Positions 3,267 to 58,414 of a stretch of 64,000 nt of DNA are shown here, piece after piece. This stretch comes from a virus. Its lineage: Duplodnaviria > Caudoviricetes. Positions within the stretch are counted from its first letter, which is position 1. The number at the start of each line of letters is the position of its first letter. The notes under the pieces were generated by a model. That model was not told the origin of the DNA and did not search any database. It saw nothing but the letters and a program-made list of their open reading frames with translations. The translations under genes and the position numbers were made by a program. The stretch is from positions 1-64,000 of the IMG/VR virus record IMGVR_UViG_3300021979_000004. One strand, given 5' to 3'.

Positions 3267-3349
3267 TGGCACCCAAGGTAGGATTCGAACCTACGTTTTC
3301 AACTCCAACTACGCTTACTTGGTTCGTAGCCAAGCACGGTTACTTGGGT
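3267..3349 (-). tRNA. Atypical tRNA-Arg(ACG) lacking a D-arm
   Basis: Acceptor ACCCAAG/CTTGGGT+GCCA, anticodon arm CTTGG-CTACGAA-CCAAG, canonical T-arm; only 8 nt where the D-arm should be. Confidence 0.65.
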
Positions 3350-3479: not shown

Positions 3480-3851
3480 ATGGCTATCGAAAAATTTTAT
3501 TACATAGAATGGAAAATTCCTTGTAAGTATGAACCTATTGGTTTTCATGAGGATACACTTGATTGTGAGCGTCAAGAATATTACGTCACATCATATAAAG
3601 AATTTGTATCCGAAAAAATTAAATCTATAAAAAATAAATATAAATTAAAAGTTTATTATTCTAAAACAGAATCACAACATTTATATCTAGCATTAAATGT
3701 ACATTACCGATATCATTATATAACGGCTGTGATTTATCTAAAAGTAGGAATTTTGAAACTTAACTATAAACCTGATACAAACCTAATTAAGTTAAAATTC
3801 CCCAAGATATATAAGAACTGTCGCATTGTATCAAGATACGAACAAGTCTAA
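3480..3851 (+). CDS. Hypothetical protein inserted antisense within the tRNA cluster
   Basis: 123-aa ORF filling the gap between tRNA-Ser and tRNA-Glu. Confidence 0.6.
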   Translation: MAIEKFYYIEWKIPCKYEPIGFHEDTLDCERQEYYVTSYKEFVSEKIKSIKNKYKLKVYYSKTESQHLYLALNVHYRYHYITAVIYLKVGILKLNYKPDTNLIKLKFPKIYKNCRIVSRYEQV

Positions 3852-3854
3852 AAT

Positions 3855-3929
3855 TGGTGCCCTAGAGGGGTTTCGATCCCCTTGCTTCCGGTTGAAAGCC
3901 GGATGATTTAGCCAGTAATCGACTAGGGC
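3855..3929 (-). tRNA. tRNA-Glu(TTC)
   Basis: Cloverleaf, loop CT-TTC-AA, CCA end. Confidence 0.93.
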
Positions 3930-3974
3930 TAGAATACTTTGGCTTATGAATATTCACCAAAATAAAAATGAAAT

Positions 3975-4053
3975 TGGTTGGGGCTGGGGGATTTGAACCC
4001 ACCGACCAATTGGTTAAAAGCCAACTGCTCTATCCAGACTGAGCTAAGCCCCA
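3975..4053 (-). tRNA. tRNA-Lys(TTT)
   Basis: Cloverleaf, loop CT-TTT-AA, CCA end. Confidence 0.95.
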
Positions 4054-4058
4054 GAAAA

Positions 4059-4174
4059 TAACATGTGAAATCCTTCAGTTTGAAGTCGCCAATCGTGACG
4101 CTTTCCACCATATGATTAGTACAGTGACAAGGGTTGATTATCATTAAAATGACATCACCGTATTTCACATGTTA
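4059..4174 (-). ncRNA. Unknown structured RNA closed by a 13-bp perfect helix
   Basis: TAACATGTGAAAT (4059-4071) is the reverse complement of 4162-4174; sits between tRNA-Ile and tRNA-Lys. Confidence 0.5.
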
Positions 4175-4183
4175 CAAAAAAAT

Positions 4184-4260
4184 TGGTAGGAAGTACTAGG
4201 TTCGAACTAGTGACCTCACCGTTATCAGCGGTGCGCTCTAACCAACTGAGCTAACTTCCT
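4184..4260 (-). tRNA. tRNA-Ile(GAT)
   Basis: Cloverleaf, loop CT-GAT-AA, CCA end. Confidence 0.95.
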
Positions 4261-4265
4261 AAAAT

Positions 4266-4341
4266 TGGTGGAGACGGTGAGAATCAAACTCACCACACAA
4301 ACCTTGCAAAGGTTCGTCGCCCTCTTGGTACATGCGCCCCC
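4266..4341 (-). tRNA. tRNA-Ala(TGC), atypical D-arm
   Basis: Acceptor GGGGGCG/CGTCTCC with the G3:U70 Ala determinant, loop TT-TGC-AA, ACCA end. Confidence 0.8.
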
Positions 4342-4355
4342 ATAAATTATCTATA

Positions 4356-4368
4356 TTTTTAAAGAACA
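4356..4368 (-). promoter_or_regulatory. boxA-like antitermination element
   Basis: TGTTCTTTAAAAA on the minus strand between tRNA-Phe and tRNA-Ala; matches rrn boxA (TGCTCTTTAACA). Confidence 0.6.
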
Positions 4369-4385
4369 TGGCCTAAAGCCTAATT

Positions 4386-4461
4386 TGGTGGATTGGGCAG
4401 GGATTGAACCTGCGACCATCGGAATTTCAACCCGACACTCTACCAACTGAGTTACCAATCC
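4386..4461 (-). tRNA. tRNA-Phe(GAA)
   Basis: Cloverleaf, loop TT-GAA-AT, CCA end. Confidence 0.95.
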
Positions 4462-4475
4462 TAAACTTCTAATTT

Positions 4476-4550
4476 TGGAGCGGGTAAACGGTTTCGAACC
4501 GATGCACGGAGGGTGGAAGCCTCCCGCTCTACCAACTGAGCTATACCCGC
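4476..4550 (-). tRNA. tRNA-Gly(TCC)
   Basis: Cloverleaf, loop CT-TCC-AC, CCA end. Confidence 0.95.
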
Positions 4551-4568
4551 AAAAATTCTCTTAAAACT

Positions 4569-4600
4569 AAAAAACCCTTCTCAGTGGAAGGGTTTCTTTT
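4569..4600 (-). terminator. Attenuator-type terminator upstream of the tRNA operon
   Basis: AAACCCTTC-CACTGA-GAAGGGTTT hairpin plus T-run, about 20 nt before tRNA-Gly. Confidence 0.8.
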
Positions 4601-4638
4601 ATCTTACTTTGCTTATGTAATATTTACTTAGTCATAAG

Positions 4639-4764
4639 CTAGAAACCCTTAATCTCCACTTCCGCACTATCAATAATCTCGCGATTAAAAGATACACGTG
4701 CACAGGGGAACTCACTTCCCTTGAACTGTTGATTCGATTTGTGCATATGTGCGTTAATAGTCAT
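4639..4764 (-). CDS. Putative 41-aa leader peptide MTINAHMHKSNQQFKGSEFPCARVSFNREIIDSAEVEIKGF
   Basis: Open frame translated by hand with GAGAG SD; last codons (AAGGGTTTCT) are complementary to the 5' arm of the terminator; too short for the ORF track. Confidence 0.7.
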   Translation of the reverse strand: MTINAHMHKSNQQFKGSEFPCARVSFNREIIDSAEVEIKGF

Positions 4765-4862
4765 TTTGGTTTCTCTCTAAAATTAGTTATATGTTACGTT
4801 AATGTTATTTATAGTGAGAGCAAAAAAGCTCTCAAAAGTATGTATTTTTTAATCTTGATACT

Positions 4863-4891
4863 AGACTAAACTTATTTATGGTTTCTGTCAA
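4863..4891 (-). promoter_or_regulatory. Sigma70-like promoter with nested CATAAATA late element
   Basis: TTGACA-gaaaccataaataagtt(17)-TAGTCT; a further TATAAATA lies near 4806-4813 (minus). Confidence 0.7.
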
Positions 4892-4909
4892 GCACTTTTT
4901 TAAAATTTC

Positions 4910-5449
4910 TTATCTTAACTTAACCGATAGTGTTCCTGCATCTATTAAGTGTTGAACACTACCACCGAATGATTCAATCTTATATGTCTGTCCAGTATGT
5001 GCACTAGTTGTAACTGTTGCTGAATCTCCCTGACCCGGACGATCACTACCTACTTCAATCCAGCTTCCATTATCAAGGTAATAAACCCTAAGCTCAAAAG
5101 CTTTATTAAGAGGATCATAGGTAATGCTAACTTCAGAAACTTCTTCTTCTTGAGTTAGCTTAAATATAATTGAATTTCCTCGTTCAAAGTCCCATGCTTC
5201 ACCTGTTAAAAAATGATCGAATTCAGTCCCAACCGCACCGTTGTAATCTGTTATATAAGCAGTTCCAGCAAGAATATCATATTCCGGTGAAACTGTATTT
5301 TGCTTAATATCGAACGTACTAAAATATTCAGTAGTCATTATATTAGTATTAATAGGATATATAACTGGTTCAACTAGAGGGGGATTATCCCCAATGCGTA
5401 TAGCGTTAAATTTTACATTTTGTGATTTAATCATCGGTATATTCTCCAT
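4910..5449 (-). CDS. Putative virion surface/adhesin-like beta-sandwich protein (late gene)
   Basis: TATAAATA upstream; T/S/G/N-rich composition typical of structural proteins. Confidence 0.4.
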   Translation of the reverse strand: MENIPMIKSQNVKFNAIRIGDNPPLVEPVIYPINTNIMTTEYFSTFDIKQNTVSPEYDILAGTAYITDYNGAVGTEFDHFLTGEAWDFERGNSIIFKLTQEEEVSEVSITYDPLNKAFELRVYYLDNGSWIEVGSDRPGQGDSATVTTSAHTGQTYKIESFGGSVQHLIDAGTLSVKLR

Positions 5450-5494
5450 TGTTATGATGTATTTATAACACCATACAAAAGATAATATTAAATG

Positions 5495-13028: not shown

Positions 13029-14009
13029 ATGAAAATTAATGAAGTGGATATACCGGAAGAGAATGCGTTGTTCGAAAAAATAATAGCATCGAAGTATTTC
13101 AACGATAACATTTTACCTTATATTATAAAAAATCGTATGCCCCCAGAGTTAATACATGGAACTTATAAGTTAGAGCCAAGAAAGGTTTTTTACAATAAAG
13201 GTCGTGGCAGGCCAGTTGATACATCCAGATTAATACACGATTTGGTTAACCAACAGTCGAAGGAAAAGTTTGGGGTTGAAGTCAGAAACTTACTGTTTGC
13301 CTCTCAGTCTGCCGAAGTATCAGAGAACTATGGGTCAACAATAACAATTATTCCATTAGATGATGATTATAGATTTTACTACAGCGATATCGTAGCTGAC
13401 ATGTACACATCATCAAATGGTATTTTTAGCTTCACTGAATATAACAAGAAACGAGGGAAGGTAGTTTTAGATGCAGTAAACAGCGATCAAGGCAAAAGGT
13501 TTCAATCTGAAATATACAAAGCAATTACAGGTAGTGATGGTATGACACAATCTATAACCTATTACTTGTACAGTGTTGTTTACAGTGTCGGTTTCTATGG
13601 CGGAACACTAGAAGATAATATTTTTGTTTTCCAAAGCTTAGATGAAATGCGTGACGCAAAGAATTGGACAATACCCGCTAAGCACATGATAAACTCTATC
13701 AAAAACTGTTATAGAAAACTTGTTGAAAAAGAAAACATCTATGATGTTGATGACTTGAATTTTAGAAACGCACAAAACCTGCTCAAAGATTTTGTTACAT
13801 TTATTATAGATCATTTAATTGAAATGGACATAGAAACTTTGAAACAACGTGCATACATGTACGTGTCTGATTTGAAAGAAACAACAGACCTTTATGAGAT
13901 AAATGAAGCACATGAGATAATGTGTTCAAAAGGAAACTATGCCACATTGAGTACATTCAAAGGCGACATGCATAGTCTGGTTAAATATTATAAGAGACGA
14001 TATCAATAA
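13029..14009 (+). CDS. ART-like paralog 1 (candidate internal head protein)
   Basis: AATAAATA at 13000-13007; MKINE start; motifs IHGT, RPVDT, RNLLFAS..YG, HEIM shared with five paralogs. Confidence 0.55.
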   Translation: MKINEVDIPEENALFEKIIASKYFNDNILPYIIKNRMPPELIHGTYKLEPRKVFYNKGRGRPVDTSRLIHDLVNQQSKEKFGVEVRNLLFASQSAEVSENYGSTITIIPLDDDYRFYYSDIVADMYTSSNGIFSFTEYNKKRGKVVLDAVNSDQGKRFQSEIYKAITGSDGMTQSITYYLYSVVYSVGFYGGTLEDNIFVFQSLDEMRDAKNWTIPAKHMINSIKNCYRKLVEKENIYDVDDLNFRNAQNLLKDFVTFIIDHLIEMDIETLKQRAYMYVSDLKETTDLYEINEAHEIMCSKGNYATLSTFKGDMHSLVKYYKRRYQ

Positions 14010-16857: not shown

Positions 16858-17907
16858 ATGAAGATTAAGCACTTACTAGAAGATAGAAAAGATTATAGCA
16901 ATATTATCAAAAACCCATTCTTTCAAAAATATATTCTTCCCAAGATCAACAAAGAAATGTTCGATGGCGTTGAAAAGTTTTTATACAAGAAAGAAAAGGA
17001 TTTTACGAGTTCTTTCAGAATGGATCGTTCACTATTGTTTACTCTTTCTATGGAAGTTTTCACACATACCAAAGATATACTTTTACATGGCAGTAACCAT
17101 GGTCATTATGAAACTGGTGAAACGTATACGCTTACTCACCGAGAAGGTCCAAGGGATAGCGATTCAACCATGCATAATATGGTTAATAAAGTATCTGAAG
17201 ATGTGTATGACGAATTTATTAGAAACCTGATGTTTGTAACAAGGTTATTTTCGACAGCATCAGATTATGCAGACAAGTATACCGACCTCTATATAATCAT
17301 TCCGTTGGATACTCCAACTTTTTATTATAGTGATAAGTATGAAGATTTCTTTGTTGACTATCTAGGTGAAGGTAACGCAGTTAGAAATTTGCTGAGAGAA
17401 GTTATGAACACTACTAATTTCTTAGTAGGAGACAATGAGAAAGAATTTAAAGCGTTAGGTGATGAATGGGATTATGATGCTTGGTTATTTTATGAGCTAT
17501 GTAAGAATAGTATTGAAAAGTCACTGAAGGATAAAACTAAAATATTATTCGACAACCTTACAAACAACAACTATCTCGAAACCTTAACCGGTGATATTAA
17601 AGCCGAGATTGTAGATCATATAGAATTTTTAATGAAGAAACAGTTTGATAAAAAAGCCAGTGATAAATTTTTAAAAGAAATTTCTTCACTAGTAAGTCCA
17701 ATAGTTGATCAGTATACAAGAAATATATACAAAGCAATCCATAACCTAGCTGAAAGTTACGTAAAGAGTGTTAAACGAACTAACAATTTCACAGAGGCAA
17801 GTGAAGATTCTGAATTAATGATGGACTGTAATCAGTTCACCGTGATTGAAATGAACGACTTCGCTAACATAGTGGTTGAAGTTTACAAATCCCAACGCGA
17901 AAGTTAA
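16858..17907 (+). CDS. ART-like paralog 3
   Basis: MKIKHLLE; LHGS, GPRDS, RNLMFVT..ASDY, SELMM. Confidence 0.55.
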   Translation: MKIKHLLEDRKDYSNIIKNPFFQKYILPKINKEMFDGVEKFLYKKEKDFTSSFRMDRSLLFTLSMEVFTHTKDILLHGSNHGHYETGETYTLTHREGPRDSDSTMHNMVNKVSEDVYDEFIRNLMFVTRLFSTASDYADKYTDLYIIIPLDTPTFYYSDKYEDFFVDYLGEGNAVRNLLREVMNTTNFLVGDNEKEFKALGDEWDYDAWLFYELCKNSIEKSLKDKTKILFDNLTNNNYLETLTGDIKAEIVDHIEFLMKKQFDKKASDKFLKEISSLVSPIVDQYTRNIYKAIHNLAESYVKSVKRTNNFTEASEDSELMMDCNQFTVIEMNDFANIVVEVYKSQRES

Positions 17908-24915: not shown

Positions 24916-24987
24916 GTATTGACAGATATTAGTTTTGATTGTATTCTTATTACAAGTTGATGAGAAAATAAATTTTAAAAAAGTGTA

Positions 24988-25016
24988 TTGACAGAAACCA
25001 TAAATAACTTTACACT
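24988..25016 (+). promoter_or_regulatory. Sigma70-like promoter with nested CATAAATA
   Basis: TTGACA-gaaaccataaataactt-TACACT, about 10 nt before tRNA-Thr. Confidence 0.75.
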
Positions 25017-25026
25017 TGAACAAGTT

Positions 25027-25323
25027 GCCGTAGTAGCTCAGTTGGTAGAGCAACTGACTTGAAGATACGAGCCTCAATTTGGAAACAATTTGAGTGGAAG
25101 GAATCAAATTCAGGGAAACCTTAACACGTAATGGTGATGGCAATCCTGAGCCAAGCCTAGAAGTTCTAGGAAGGTGCAGAGACTAGACGGTTCCTACCTA
25201 AGCATTCTTAAAAGGAATGTATGGTAAAGGTATAGTCCAGACCACAAATGTGAAGACAGTAGCGAAAGCTATAGTGGTAAGGTAATCAGTAGGTCGGGGG
25301 TTCAAATCCCTCCTGCGGCTCCA
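25027..25323 (+). tRNA. tRNA-Thr(TGT), intron-split: exon 1 25027-25060, exon 2 25282-25323
   Basis: Joined exons give ACTGA-CT-TGT-AA-TCAGT anticodon arm, GCCGTAG/CTGCGGC acceptor and CCA. Confidence 0.92.
25061..25281 (+). ncRNA. Group I self-splicing intron (IC3, trnL-UAA type), 221 nt, no ORF
   Basis: AATTCAGGGAAACC, GGCAATCCTGAGCCAAG, GGTGCAGAGACTAGACGG, ATAGTCC, CAGTAGCGAAAGCT; exon ends in U with U:G in P1 (CTT/GAG); intron ends in G. Confidence 0.92.
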
Positions 25324-35951: not shown

Positions 35952-36302
35952 CGTAGATCGTGTGTCTGCATAAAACAAAATTCCATTCAATTGCTAACGT
36001 GGTGTTCACCTTAGTTAACATTGGAAGTGTTAGTAGGCACCATCTTTTAGCTTAGGTTTCTGGGACGCTTGCATTTTATAGATAAAATAGTAGGCCATCC
36101 CCATACTAAGCTGCGAATCCGAAGTACCGTTGACCAAACGTTTTAAAGAAAAATAGTAGTCATCAAACGTCATATCGGAAACGCTAGGCTATGTCCTGAC
36201 TCGTGCGAACCATACTAGATTTGGCAATCAGAGCGATTAGGATGGAGGTTAATAAAATTTGACAAGAATATCTCTAGCTAAAAAAAGTTTTTCTCAAAGT
36301 GC

Positions 36303-36365
36303 TTGACACTGAATTCGAATGACCTTATAATGGTTACAGAAGTTGAGGAAAACGCTCTTTAAAAA
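36303..36365 (+). promoter_or_regulatory. Consensus sigma70 promoter plus boxA driving the ncRNA array
   Basis: TTGACA-17-TATAAT (36303-36331); CGCTCTTTAAAAA (36353-36365). Confidence 0.8.
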
Positions 36366-36369
36366 CTGA

Positions 36370-37594
36370 ATAGCTTTGGTACTCGCTTGACCGTCCCGAT
36401 AGTAAGAGCAAAGGTCATAAATCATTGCCACCAAAGCTTTTTGCCCATAGGCTTACTCACCTATGTTACAGGCGCGGTAACCAATCCGAAGAGTAAGAGT
36501 TACGAGAGTATATAGGCATGGTCCTTTTTCATCATGTGAAATTCCTATCAAGTAAGGGTCATGACCTATATACTCTCAACGACCGATGGCACCCTTGGAC
36601 TAGCTCATCCATGTTACAGGTGCGGTATCCAGCCCGAAGAGCTACCGAATTTTCTAACCAAGGTTTGGCGTAATATGGCCTTGGTTCTAAAAACCACAAG
36701 TGTCTGTTTTTTCCTCCTTTGTCGGACACGCTACCAGTGGGTACAGGGGATAGAGGTTCACCCTGAAGTGGGTATACAGGACAAATATTTAGTTTCTGTC
36801 TCCGGTCCTGTATACCTAAACTTATTTGCCGAAAACCTGTAGACGGTTCTTTGCAGTTGTCCGTCAATAACCGCAGGGTAAGGGGTATTGTGGTTCACCC
36901 CAAATGTTTTGCCTAATGGGTTGTAAATAATATAATTACAATACATTAAGAAGTAGAGGTGAGGTTATGTATACAGGTCATTCCTGTGTGTAGGTTGAAC
37001 TCCTGCTAACCAACACCCTCTGCGACAAGTTTATAACCATGGGAATAAGACCTCTGCAAGCAAGTCCATCTGTGAAATCTCGTAGGAGAAGCGACGGTGA
37101 GGAACCTACGGAAGTGAGTAACATACATGGTTAAAGTTTTGTGCATATGGGTTTGAATTGTTTTTAAAACTTTAAATATCTAATCTAATTTCTCCATTAG
37201 GTTTCCATATGCACAATTTATTATGTACCTGACCGATCCTCTTGGTGCCCTCCGTCTCAGCATAACCAATGGTCAGGTACAGTTTTTATGCGTCGTAGGA
37301 CTGCCGGAATTGGACTACAGTCATCAATGGTCTTCTTCTGGGGTGTCTGAACGTTTATAGTGATTAGAGATAGATGACTCAATACTCAACTCATTATAAA
37401 CCTCCCTGTTCGACTCGGGGGCGACGAGCCAACTTCAAGTCGGGTAGCTCAGATGAATAGAGCGCGTCACTGATAAGGACGAGGCCGGTAGTCACTACCC
37501 CCGAATTAAAAAATTATGGTGCTGTTGCTTGCTGATCACAAGTAGGGAATATACTGATCTAGACAGGAGTGGGTTCGAATCCCATCCAGTGCCA
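36370..37594 (+). ncRNA. Array of structured non-coding RNAs (about 1.25 kb)
   Basis: Many 9-13-bp perfect helices, a duplicated motif and several T-loop arms; no credible ORF. Confidence 0.65.
37441..37505 (+). pseudogene. Degenerate tRNA-Ile(GAT)
   Basis: D-arm AGCTCAGATGAATAGAGC and loop CT-GAT-AA intact; T-arm lost. Confidence 0.5.
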
Positions 37595-39205: not shown

Positions 39206-39252
39206 AAACGCAATGATTCTTCTGTTTAGTATAAATAAAACAGGAGGTCATT

Positions 39253-57530: not shown

Positions 57531-57560
57531 AAAGGGGTCAATTAAGACCCCTTTTTTATT
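57531..57560. terminator. Bidirectional terminator
   Basis: AAAAAGGGGTC-AATTAA-GACCCCTTTTTT. Confidence 0.8.
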
Positions 57561-58414
57561 TTTAGTACTTCAGAAAGAAAGTCGTTGAAATTCTCAGCAT
57601 ATACTGCCGCTATCTCATCTGCTTGAATCATAATCTCTTCGTTATTAATATCATGCATTGATTGAGTAACTTCAATACTATTAACATAGTTATTGAACTG
57701 CTTGAATATTTTCTTTCCATATTCATAAAAACGCTTCTCTAGAATCTTCACATCACTCTGCTTATAGTTACTAATCCCTTCTGGATCGTTGTAATATTCA
57801 GATGCCATCTTACGTGCTAACTTTTTAAGAGACTTATCAAATGTCTTTAGATTCTTAAAATCGAATTCATATCTTTCGAAGGTATCAGTTAGACTTTCCA
57901 TGATCATTTCATCGTAAGTATCTTGGAATTGTAATAGAACTTCATTGACAATAAAGAATATCATATCACTGTCGGTATTGTAATGTGCAGTAAAATCTTT
58001 AACATTTTCACTATAAAACAAACGATAATCGCCTAATGGAAACAGTACATATGGGTTGCCATATTCTGACGCTGTTTTTATATTCTTATCAGCAAAGATA
58101 AGATTTCTAATTGGGACACCAAACTTTTCGCTTGATAGCATGTTTACATATTTGTGAATTTCTATATTAGTATCAGTGGGAATACGATTCTCACTGTATG
58201 GCGTAATAACAAGATATGGAGTTGTATATTTGTGTGATCCACGAAAAATATTGGCAAACTCATTCACTAAGTTATCGTTTTCCAAGTCTTCAGGTTCGAG
58301 TGTTTTTAATTGCATACTGTACATTTCGTTGAAGTACTTTGAGTTAGCAACACGTTCTATGATCTGCCTATAGTTTCCTTGGTTGTCGTCTTCTAATAAA
58401 TGTTTTATTAGCAT
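57542..58414 (-). CDS. ART-like paralog 5
   Basis: MLIKHLLE; IFRGS, RIPTDT, RNLIFA..ASEYG, EEIMI. Confidence 0.55.
   Translation of the reverse strand: MLIKHLLEDDNQGNYRQIIERVANSKYFNEMYSMQLKTLEPEDLENDNLVNEFANIFRGSHKYTTPYLVITPYSENRIPTDTNIEIHKYVNMLSSEKFGVPIRNLIFADKNIKTASEYGNPYVLFPLGDYRLFYSENVKDFTAHYNTDSDMIFFIVNEVLLQFQDTYDEMIMESLTDTFERYEFDFKNLKTFDKSLKKLARKMASEYYNDPEGISNYKQSDVKILEKRFYEYGKKIFKQFNNYVNSIEVTQSMHDINNEEIMIQADEIAAVYAENFNDFLSEVLKIKKGS

Follow-up and report, generated by a model that had tools for sequence, protein, structure and literature searches.

Attenuators of the leader-peptide type, such as trpL, hisL, pheL, leuL, thrL and ilvL, place a short ORF close to the promoter and a terminator ahead of the genes that they regulate. 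In the trp-type leaders of enterobacteria, four RNA segments engage in alternative pairings (1:2, 2:3 and 3:4), the antiterminator is covered by a ribosome standing at the stop codon, the antiterminator and the terminator have comparable energies, and the ORF contains a tandem run of regulatory codons. The genes placed under such leaders encode biosynthetic enzymes. Attenuation also ties components of translation to the tRNA pool in pheST of E. coli (Phe-tRNA synthetase), with its pheM leader, and in the T-box systems of Gram-positive bacteria, but these regulate synthetase or amino-acid genes and not tRNA genes, and the T-box binds tRNA and has no leader ORF. The prevailing view places the control of bacterial tRNA genes at initiation (growth-rate and stringent control) and not at attenuation, and we know of essentially nothing on how phages control their own tRNA genes. 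A full-text literature search, of incomplete coverage, turned up no account of tRNA genes being regulated by attenuation, be it in phages or in bacteria.

The DNA considered here, referred to below as the window, comprises 64 kb at the beginning of an IMG/VR virus contig that measures 217,982 bp and has an estimated completeness of 73% and a GC content of about 35%. Its source is an uncultured marine jumbo phage, relatives of which were not found in INPHARED by megablast or tblastn. Eighteen tRNAs are detected in the window by ARAGORN, and two further ones and one group I intron by Rfam only; the two extra tRNAs lie at 3270-3349 (-) (41.5 bits) and 37438-37507 (+) (32.5 bits). The window also holds three paralogues of PHROG 15932, a family of unassigned function, within 45 kb (13029-14009 (+), 16858-17907 (+) and 57542-58414 (-)). 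On the minus strand, a highly conserved cassette of about 330 nt runs from a promoter through a small ORF to an intrinsic terminator placed just ahead of a series of tRNA genes (Table 1). It is probable, considering its sequence and its modelled folds, that this cassette is a translation-coupled transcription attenuator of the leader-peptide type gating a block of five tRNAs.

Table 1. Features of the cassette and of the tRNA block behind it (window coordinates; ORF, open reading frame; RBS, ribosome-binding site).
Feature	Position	Strand	Description
Early sigma70-type promoter	4863-4900	-	A-tract + GTGC; -35 TTGACA 4891-4886; 17-nt spacer; -10 TAGTCT 4868-4863
Hairpin H0	4816-4833	-	GAGAGC-T6-GCTCTC; early 5' UTR, between early promoter and TATAAATA
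T4-late-promoter-like element TATAAATA	4813-4806	-	42 nt 5' of ATG
Segment A (AGAAACC)	4774-4768	-	At RBS, -10 to -4 of ATG; pairs with ORF end
Leader ORF	4764-4639	-	41 codons + TAG, MTINAHMHKSNQQFKGSEFPCARVSFNREIIDSAEVEIKGF; ATG 4764, TAG 4641-4639
Segment B (AAGGGTTTCT)	4650-4641	-	Last 3 codons + T of TAG; antiterminator 5' strand
Hairpin H	4611-4639	-	GCTTATG, 15-nt loop, CATAAGC; from G of stop codon; inside antiterminator loop
Segment C	4598-4587	-	Terminator 5' arm; includes AGAAACCCTT 4597-4588
Terminator loop	4586-4581	-	CACTGA
Segment D (GAAGGGTTTTTT)	4580-4569	-	Terminator 3' arm; includes T6 run 4574-4569
tRNA-Gly(UCC)	4550-4476	-	18 nt after T run
tRNA-Phe(GAA)	4461-4386	-	
tRNA-like element	4341-4266	-	Ends CCA; tmRNA model 25.3 bits (gathering 47); ARAGORN silent
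tRNA-Ile(GAU)	4260-4184	-	
tRNA-Lys(UUU)	4053-3975	-	
tRNA-Glu(UUC)	3929-3855	-	
Convergent 123-aa gene	3480-3851	+	Bounds gated block; function unassigned

The trp/his-type layout had been proposed in an earlier, sequence-only reading of the window, and the comparative and folding evidence presented below supports it. The structural hallmarks of leader-peptide attenuators (terminator, antiterminator, placing of the stop codon and anti-antiterminator) are found in the cassette, whereas regulatory codons cognate to the product are not. Several further points set it apart from the trp-type leaders: what it regulates are phage tRNAs, the tandem run of regulatory codons is missing, segment 1 has its place at the RBS and not within the ORF, and the ORF is longer (39-43 codons), a few of its residues being conserved. 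The two share no sequence homology. Rfam gave nothing at gathering score over 4400-5000, T-box included; at E <= 10 over the leader only sub-threshold matches appeared, the best leader match being Phe_leader with 21.8 bits (threshold 55), driven by the terminator.

Two promoters would serve the cassette. The early one, claimed at 4863-4891 (-) by the sequence-only reading, is present there, is kept in all relatives and is repeated, at 24988, ahead of another tRNA. Its -10 hexamer (TAGTCT, TAGACT, TACACT or CATACT, depending on the copy) agrees with TATAAT in the window at no more than three of the six positions, which explains why a consensus scan did not list it. The other occurrence (24978-25012 (+), a 91% copy) is found directly 5' of a tRNA within 24978-25323 (+) that carries a group I intron in its anticodon loop (RF00028, 25051-25254, 65.3 bits) and on which ARAGORN is silent. 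A consensus promoter at 36299-36340 (+), made of GTGCTTGACA, 17 nt and TATAAT, shares its upstream GTGC with the cassette promoter and precedes an ORF-poor region. For the cassette, reading the 5' element GTGCTTGACA as a T4 MotA box was considered and rejected, the 17-nt spacing to the -10 being that of a sigma70 -35 and not of a middle promoter.

The second promoter, overlooked by the sequence-only reading, is a T4-late-type one at 4813-4806. Its sequence TATAAATA, which we take to be the T4 late-promoter consensus, is invariant in all cassette copies together with the adjoining A (A/G)CATTAAC block. Throughout the genome, 20 of the 34 copies of TATAAATA are followed after 10-62 nt by an ORF start, ORFs of 80 aa or more being counted, where the background is 4.5% (in the window, for instance, at 39230 and 59317 (+) and at 5467, 4813 and 2645 (-)). 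From this concentration before ORF starts, the phage probably has T4-like late transcription; the distribution points to late promoters of the T4 type and, with them, to a late sigma factor resembling gp55. Between the two promoters lies hairpin H0, the sequence of which differs in nearly every lineage although all six of its pairs are kept, with changes on both sides (RNAalifold). H0 was rejected as a terminator of either strand, as no U tract follows it on either one.

Homologues of the 41-aa product are known from metagenomes only. In all, about a dozen copies of the cassette, complete from promoter to terminator and belonging to several lineages, were collected (L003-L011, two in L012/L013, and L014-L020). 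Searching with a 27-mer DNA pattern gave no match in viral contigs and one in metagenome contigs (L010), a profile search of viral contigs returned just the lineage of the second L012 copy (L012b) again, as L014, and the upstream 179-aa gene had no match when used as a query of viral contigs. What accompanies the cassette in these loci is the tRNA, found always about 20 nt after the U tract (Gly in most copies, Ser(GCU) in L009 and Phe in L012 copy b). The upstream protein genes, on the other hand, are unrelated among loci and encode proteins of 179 aa, 69 aa, 255 aa (Laminin_G_3-type), 83 aa and 137 aa. Two diverged copies occur in L012, a 222.6-kb contig, and two in L011; every one of them has a promoter, a terminator and a tRNA block to itself, as would be expected of a cis-acting element and less naturally of a gene for a trans-acting protein. 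A putative tRNA-Trp-like element between tRNA-Ser and tRNA-Cys of L012 is recognised neither by ARAGORN nor by Rfam at gathering score and is left out of account here.

Regarding the ORF, the sequence-only reading had described 41 codons preceded by a Shine-Dalgarno (SD) sequence. The ORF and its length stand, but the SD is merely a weak GAGAG at -13 to -9 (4768-4777 region, overlapping segment A), whereas AGGAG or GGAG is the norm for the genes of this phage. Conservation of ORF length in relatives, which had been put forward as a check, is observed: the homologues have 39-43 codons, all end in (A/G)AGGGTTTCTAG, and the stop is TAG in every copy, at the same place inside GGGTTTCTAG. No copy has a premature stop, the weak SD is common to them, and all 4-5 indels inside the ORF are of 3 or 6 nt, in contrast to the 1-4 nt of those in the flanks. 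Despite the weak SD, these comparisons speak in favour of the ORF being translated. The amino-acid sequence is only weakly constrained. Variable columns are distributed 20/13/21 over the three codon positions, so that positions 1 and 3 vary equally, and the ORF (54 of 126 columns) is about as variable as its flanks (67 of 136 and 44 of 94). Between the window and L010 there are 1 synonymous and 11 non-synonymous codon changes, and between the window and L008 there are 7 and 3. In the paralogues designated type a, the whole C-terminal half is replaced (...VSSDSICGWSQDDYEGF) and the frame and the final 10 nt are kept. The 41-aa peptide has no family match in Pfam or PHROGs. A peptide so weakly constrained is the pattern expected if the act of translation outweighs the product, and we read the leader as an ORF in which translation would need to run to one fixed end point, the product itself perhaps mattering little. 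Nevertheless, the blocks M1-T2-I3, H8-K9, F14-K15-G16-S17 and G40-F41 are invariant, and the conservation of MTI..MHK and of FKGSEF with its GGGAA/TTCCC hairpin goes beyond what a simple attenuator model explains.

The fixed end point of the ORF coincides with segment B. The intrinsic terminator at 4598-4569 combines a 12-bp stem with a U6 tract, has a folding energy of -14.9 kcal/mol, is invariant in relatives and is followed after 18 nt by tRNA-Gly, the sequence-only reading having reported such a terminator with the tRNA some 20 nt later. Segment B, complementary to AGAAACCCTT at 10 of 10 positions, in effect repeats D, the 3' arm of the terminator, as a decoy. The exact 10-nt complementarity between the end of the ORF and the terminator 5' arm, likewise claimed earlier, proves to be statistically exceptional: when the 142 nt upstream were shuffled 20,000 times, a 10-nt complement arose in only 14 cases (P(>=10) = 7e-4), and for the other 39 of the 40 terminator-like hairpins of the 218-kb genome the longest upstream complement of the 5' arm is at most 6 nt. 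Segment B is invariant, synonymous sites included, apart from an A to G change at position 1 that retains a G-U pair and merely stays compatible with pairing. Because A, B, C and D are otherwise invariant in all copies, covariation does not bear on the B:C and A:B pairings. Hairpin H is also conserved, with one compensatory pair (G-C to A-U) in L009.

A fourth segment, A, was overlooked in the sequence-only reading; it is a partial copy of segment C and pairs with the end of the ORF. The conserved stretches of the cassette are, besides the terminator, the -35 region; TATAAATAACATTAAC, read as the late promoter; GAGAGAAACCAAAATGACTATT, with the weak SD, segment A and the ATG; and (A/G)AGGGTTTCTAGCTTAT, in which segment B and the stop codon lie and hairpin H begins. 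Conserved likewise is GTTTAAGGGAAGT..TTC.CC, a block in the middle of the ORF that folds into a small hairpin, and the AGAAACC motif of segment A recurs in the promoter spacer.

Folding was carried out on nine aligned cassette copies, the ribosome being modelled as a footprint of a size taken from established knowledge. In transcripts ending before segment C, B pairs with A (-10 to -4) in all nine. Once C has emerged and D is still absent, B:C enclosing H becomes the minimum-energy fold, again in 9/9 copies and whether or not a ribosome is placed in the middle of the ORF. The full-length minimum-energy fold consists of A:B, H and the terminator, except in L009, which keeps B:C; the RNAalifold consensus likewise recovers A:B (7 pairs, columns 128-134 with 258-264), H and the terminator. 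The local energies of the competing structures are comparable, as in trp-type leaders, with -16.1 to -20.4 kcal/mol for B:C with H and -13.2 to -18.9 kcal/mol for the terminator over the nine copies (-16.1 versus -14.9 kcal/mol in the window). The antiterminator pairing, which was to be checked in related phages, is accordingly retained in them, with both strands invariant and the same folds in the nine copies. The further proposal that a ribosome reaching the stop masks the antiterminator agrees with the geometry of the stop, kept in every copy, and with the modelled footprint, which when placed at the stop codon removes B:C from every fold.

These observations can be combined into the following scheme. 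Transcription would begin at either promoter, the early sigma70-type one or the late TATAAATA element, and the RNA would carry a translated mini-ORF of about 41 codons. If the leading ribosome stands at the last codons or at the stop while C and D are being made, B would be held inside the ribosome, C:D would form and transcription would stop 18 nt short of tRNA-Gly. If it lags, or stalls before about codon 34, B would be free to capture C on its emergence (about -16 kcal/mol with H), and the resulting B:C would pre-empt the terminator and let the polymerase read into tRNA-Gly, Phe, Ile, Lys and Glu. If there is no translation at all, A:B would form first, the terminator would fold and the RBS would be occluded. 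Behind a stalled ribosome, A:B might arise as well, as a competitor of B:C. Overall, the scheme would amount to a negative feedback in which slow decoding yields more phage tRNA. From the anatomy, conservation, reading frame and energetics of the cassette, we infer both that termination answers to the position of the ribosome and what physiological signal is sensed.

What is gated can be delimited more closely. Calls in the block (3855-4550, -) come from ARAGORN and Rfam. A minus-strand scan of 4863-3852 found no promoter-like site; with none between the terminator and the tRNAs, expression of the latter needs read-through, an argument for termination being conditional or, at a minimum, partial. 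Downstream, the block is bounded by the convergent 123-aa gene, the sole match of which is a weak sub-threshold one to ZapA. This gene directly follows tRNA-Glu in three lineages (the window, L003 and L016), with 96% amino-acid identity in L003 and a third-position-biased divergence in L016 (29/21/44). Because of this boundary, the gated unit is taken to consist of tRNA-Gly, Phe, Ile, Lys and Glu and the tRNA-like element. The cassette thus probably controls these five tRNAs and one tRNA-like element and not the whole cluster of 11-12 tRNAs, so that the earlier description of the target as the main tRNA operon was too broad.

The codon content of the leader ORF had been given particular weight by the sequence-only reading, in which it was seen as a sampling device. 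Its counts are correct, with 29 distinct codons in 41 positions and both synonyms present for His, Lys, Asn, Gln, Phe and Glu, but such diversity is ordinary for this phage (25.8 +/- 2.4 distinct codons in 41-codon windows of its genes, P = 0.14). The use of both synonyms for six two-fold amino acids gives P = 0.024 in a test that was chosen after seeing the data. The match between codons and tRNAs was assessed with two ranges of the ORF against three sets of tRNAs. Of the 41 codons, 16-17 are read by the five downstream tRNAs (P = 0.09-0.11) and 28 by the 12 tRNAs of the cluster together (P = 0.04); with codons 2-34 only, the stretch in which a stall would leave segment B free, the match gives P = 0.09-0.44. 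The argument from codon sampling is therefore not supported, diversity being unexceptional and codons for the downstream tRNAs marginally enriched at best. No tandem run of regulatory codons was found in the leader ORF apart from ATT-ATT. The terminal KGF, which corresponds to tRNA-Lys, Gly and Phe, is of little weight, since these final codons are dictated by segment B. When the leaders of the nine copies were matched against one another's tRNA arrays, a shift towards the own array was seen in type-a leaders only. These contain 3-4 UCA/UCG Ser codons and Cys ahead of tRNA-Ser(UGA) and tRNA-Cys and are rich in Ser, Cys, Gly and Trp, their place being before tRNA-Gly, Ser(UGA) and Cys; this shift is only suggestive.

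Other explanations of the cassette deserve to be weighed against leader-peptide attenuation. The ORF might simply encode a small, fast-evolving phage protein under a promoter of its own, followed by a merely leaky terminator, the tRNAs being supplied by constitutive partial read-through; A:B and B:C would then serve mRNA folding, stability or translational auto-occlusion, or be a by-product of duplication. Small ORFs are common between phage tRNA genes, and the conserved frame, the several invariant peptide blocks, the excess of synonymous changes between the window and L008 and the presence of the terminator in the full-length minimum-energy fold (L009 excepted) are all in keeping with such a gene. 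However, a protein gene accounts poorly for an ORF that evolves about as fast as its non-coding flanks and equally at codon positions 1 and 3, for a C-terminal half that can be replaced in type a yet leaves the frame and the last 10 nt in place, and for two diverged copies in one genome, which suit a cis-acting element better. Together with a 10-bp decoy that is a statistical outlier and a peptide that belongs to no family, this makes the small gene, whatever role is given to its pairings, rather unlikely. A further alternative, in which chance accounts for both the ORF and the complementarity while the hairpin just terminates the protein genes upstream, can point to a gene at 4910-5449 (-) that needs a terminator and to the fact that the 10-nt match is a single observation in one window; it is nonetheless scarcely credible, given that the cassette travels with the tRNAs and not with the upstream genes, which differ from locus to locus, and given the shuffle statistics (P = 7e-4), the in-frame indels and the invariance of B.

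A more closely related possibility retains the terminator/antiterminator switch and has it set by something other than ribosome position, either by a sequence-specific, ligand-responsive arrest of the nascent peptide, of the TnaC or SecM kind, or by a phage or host factor or RNA that binds H0, A or B. The conserved peptide blocks and mid-ORF hairpin would be at home in such a mechanism, as would the second AGAAACC in the promoter spacer and the strongly covarying H0, which has no assigned role. Conversely, Rfam gave no match at threshold, T-box included, no candidate factor was identified, and the placing of the stop in B and of A at the RBS is the exact geometry of a switch that reads ribosome position; moreover, H0 is situated upstream of the late promoter and would for that reason be absent from late transcripts. 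A switch set in this other way is accordingly judged improbable. Leader-peptide attenuation itself admits a narrower version, in which each tRNA block stands under its own codon-tuned sensor and the stall zone of the leader evolves to hold the codons of the tRNAs behind it. The type-a leader, rich in Ser, Cys, Gly and Trp, and a type b leader, rich in Phe, Asp, Glu, Ile and Lys and placed before those tRNAs, would be its examples, and such a sensor would re-supply exactly the tRNAs that have become limiting through codon mismatch or through cleavage by host anticodon nucleases. This codon-tuned version is doubtful, and codon sampling and a response to anticodon nucleases are speculation; if codon tuning did apply, it would amount to a feedback loop acting on the tRNA genes themselves.

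With regard to what the cassette may mean for phage biology, the four-segment model gives clear mutational predictions for a compact element, even with the phage uncultured. Should leader-peptide attenuation hold, the logic of the trp and his operons would be extended to the translation machinery, in the form of a simple homeostat in which slow decoding leads to more tRNA. It would also provide a handle on when phage tRNAs matter, be it under codon mismatch, host shut-off or anticodon-nuclease defence.
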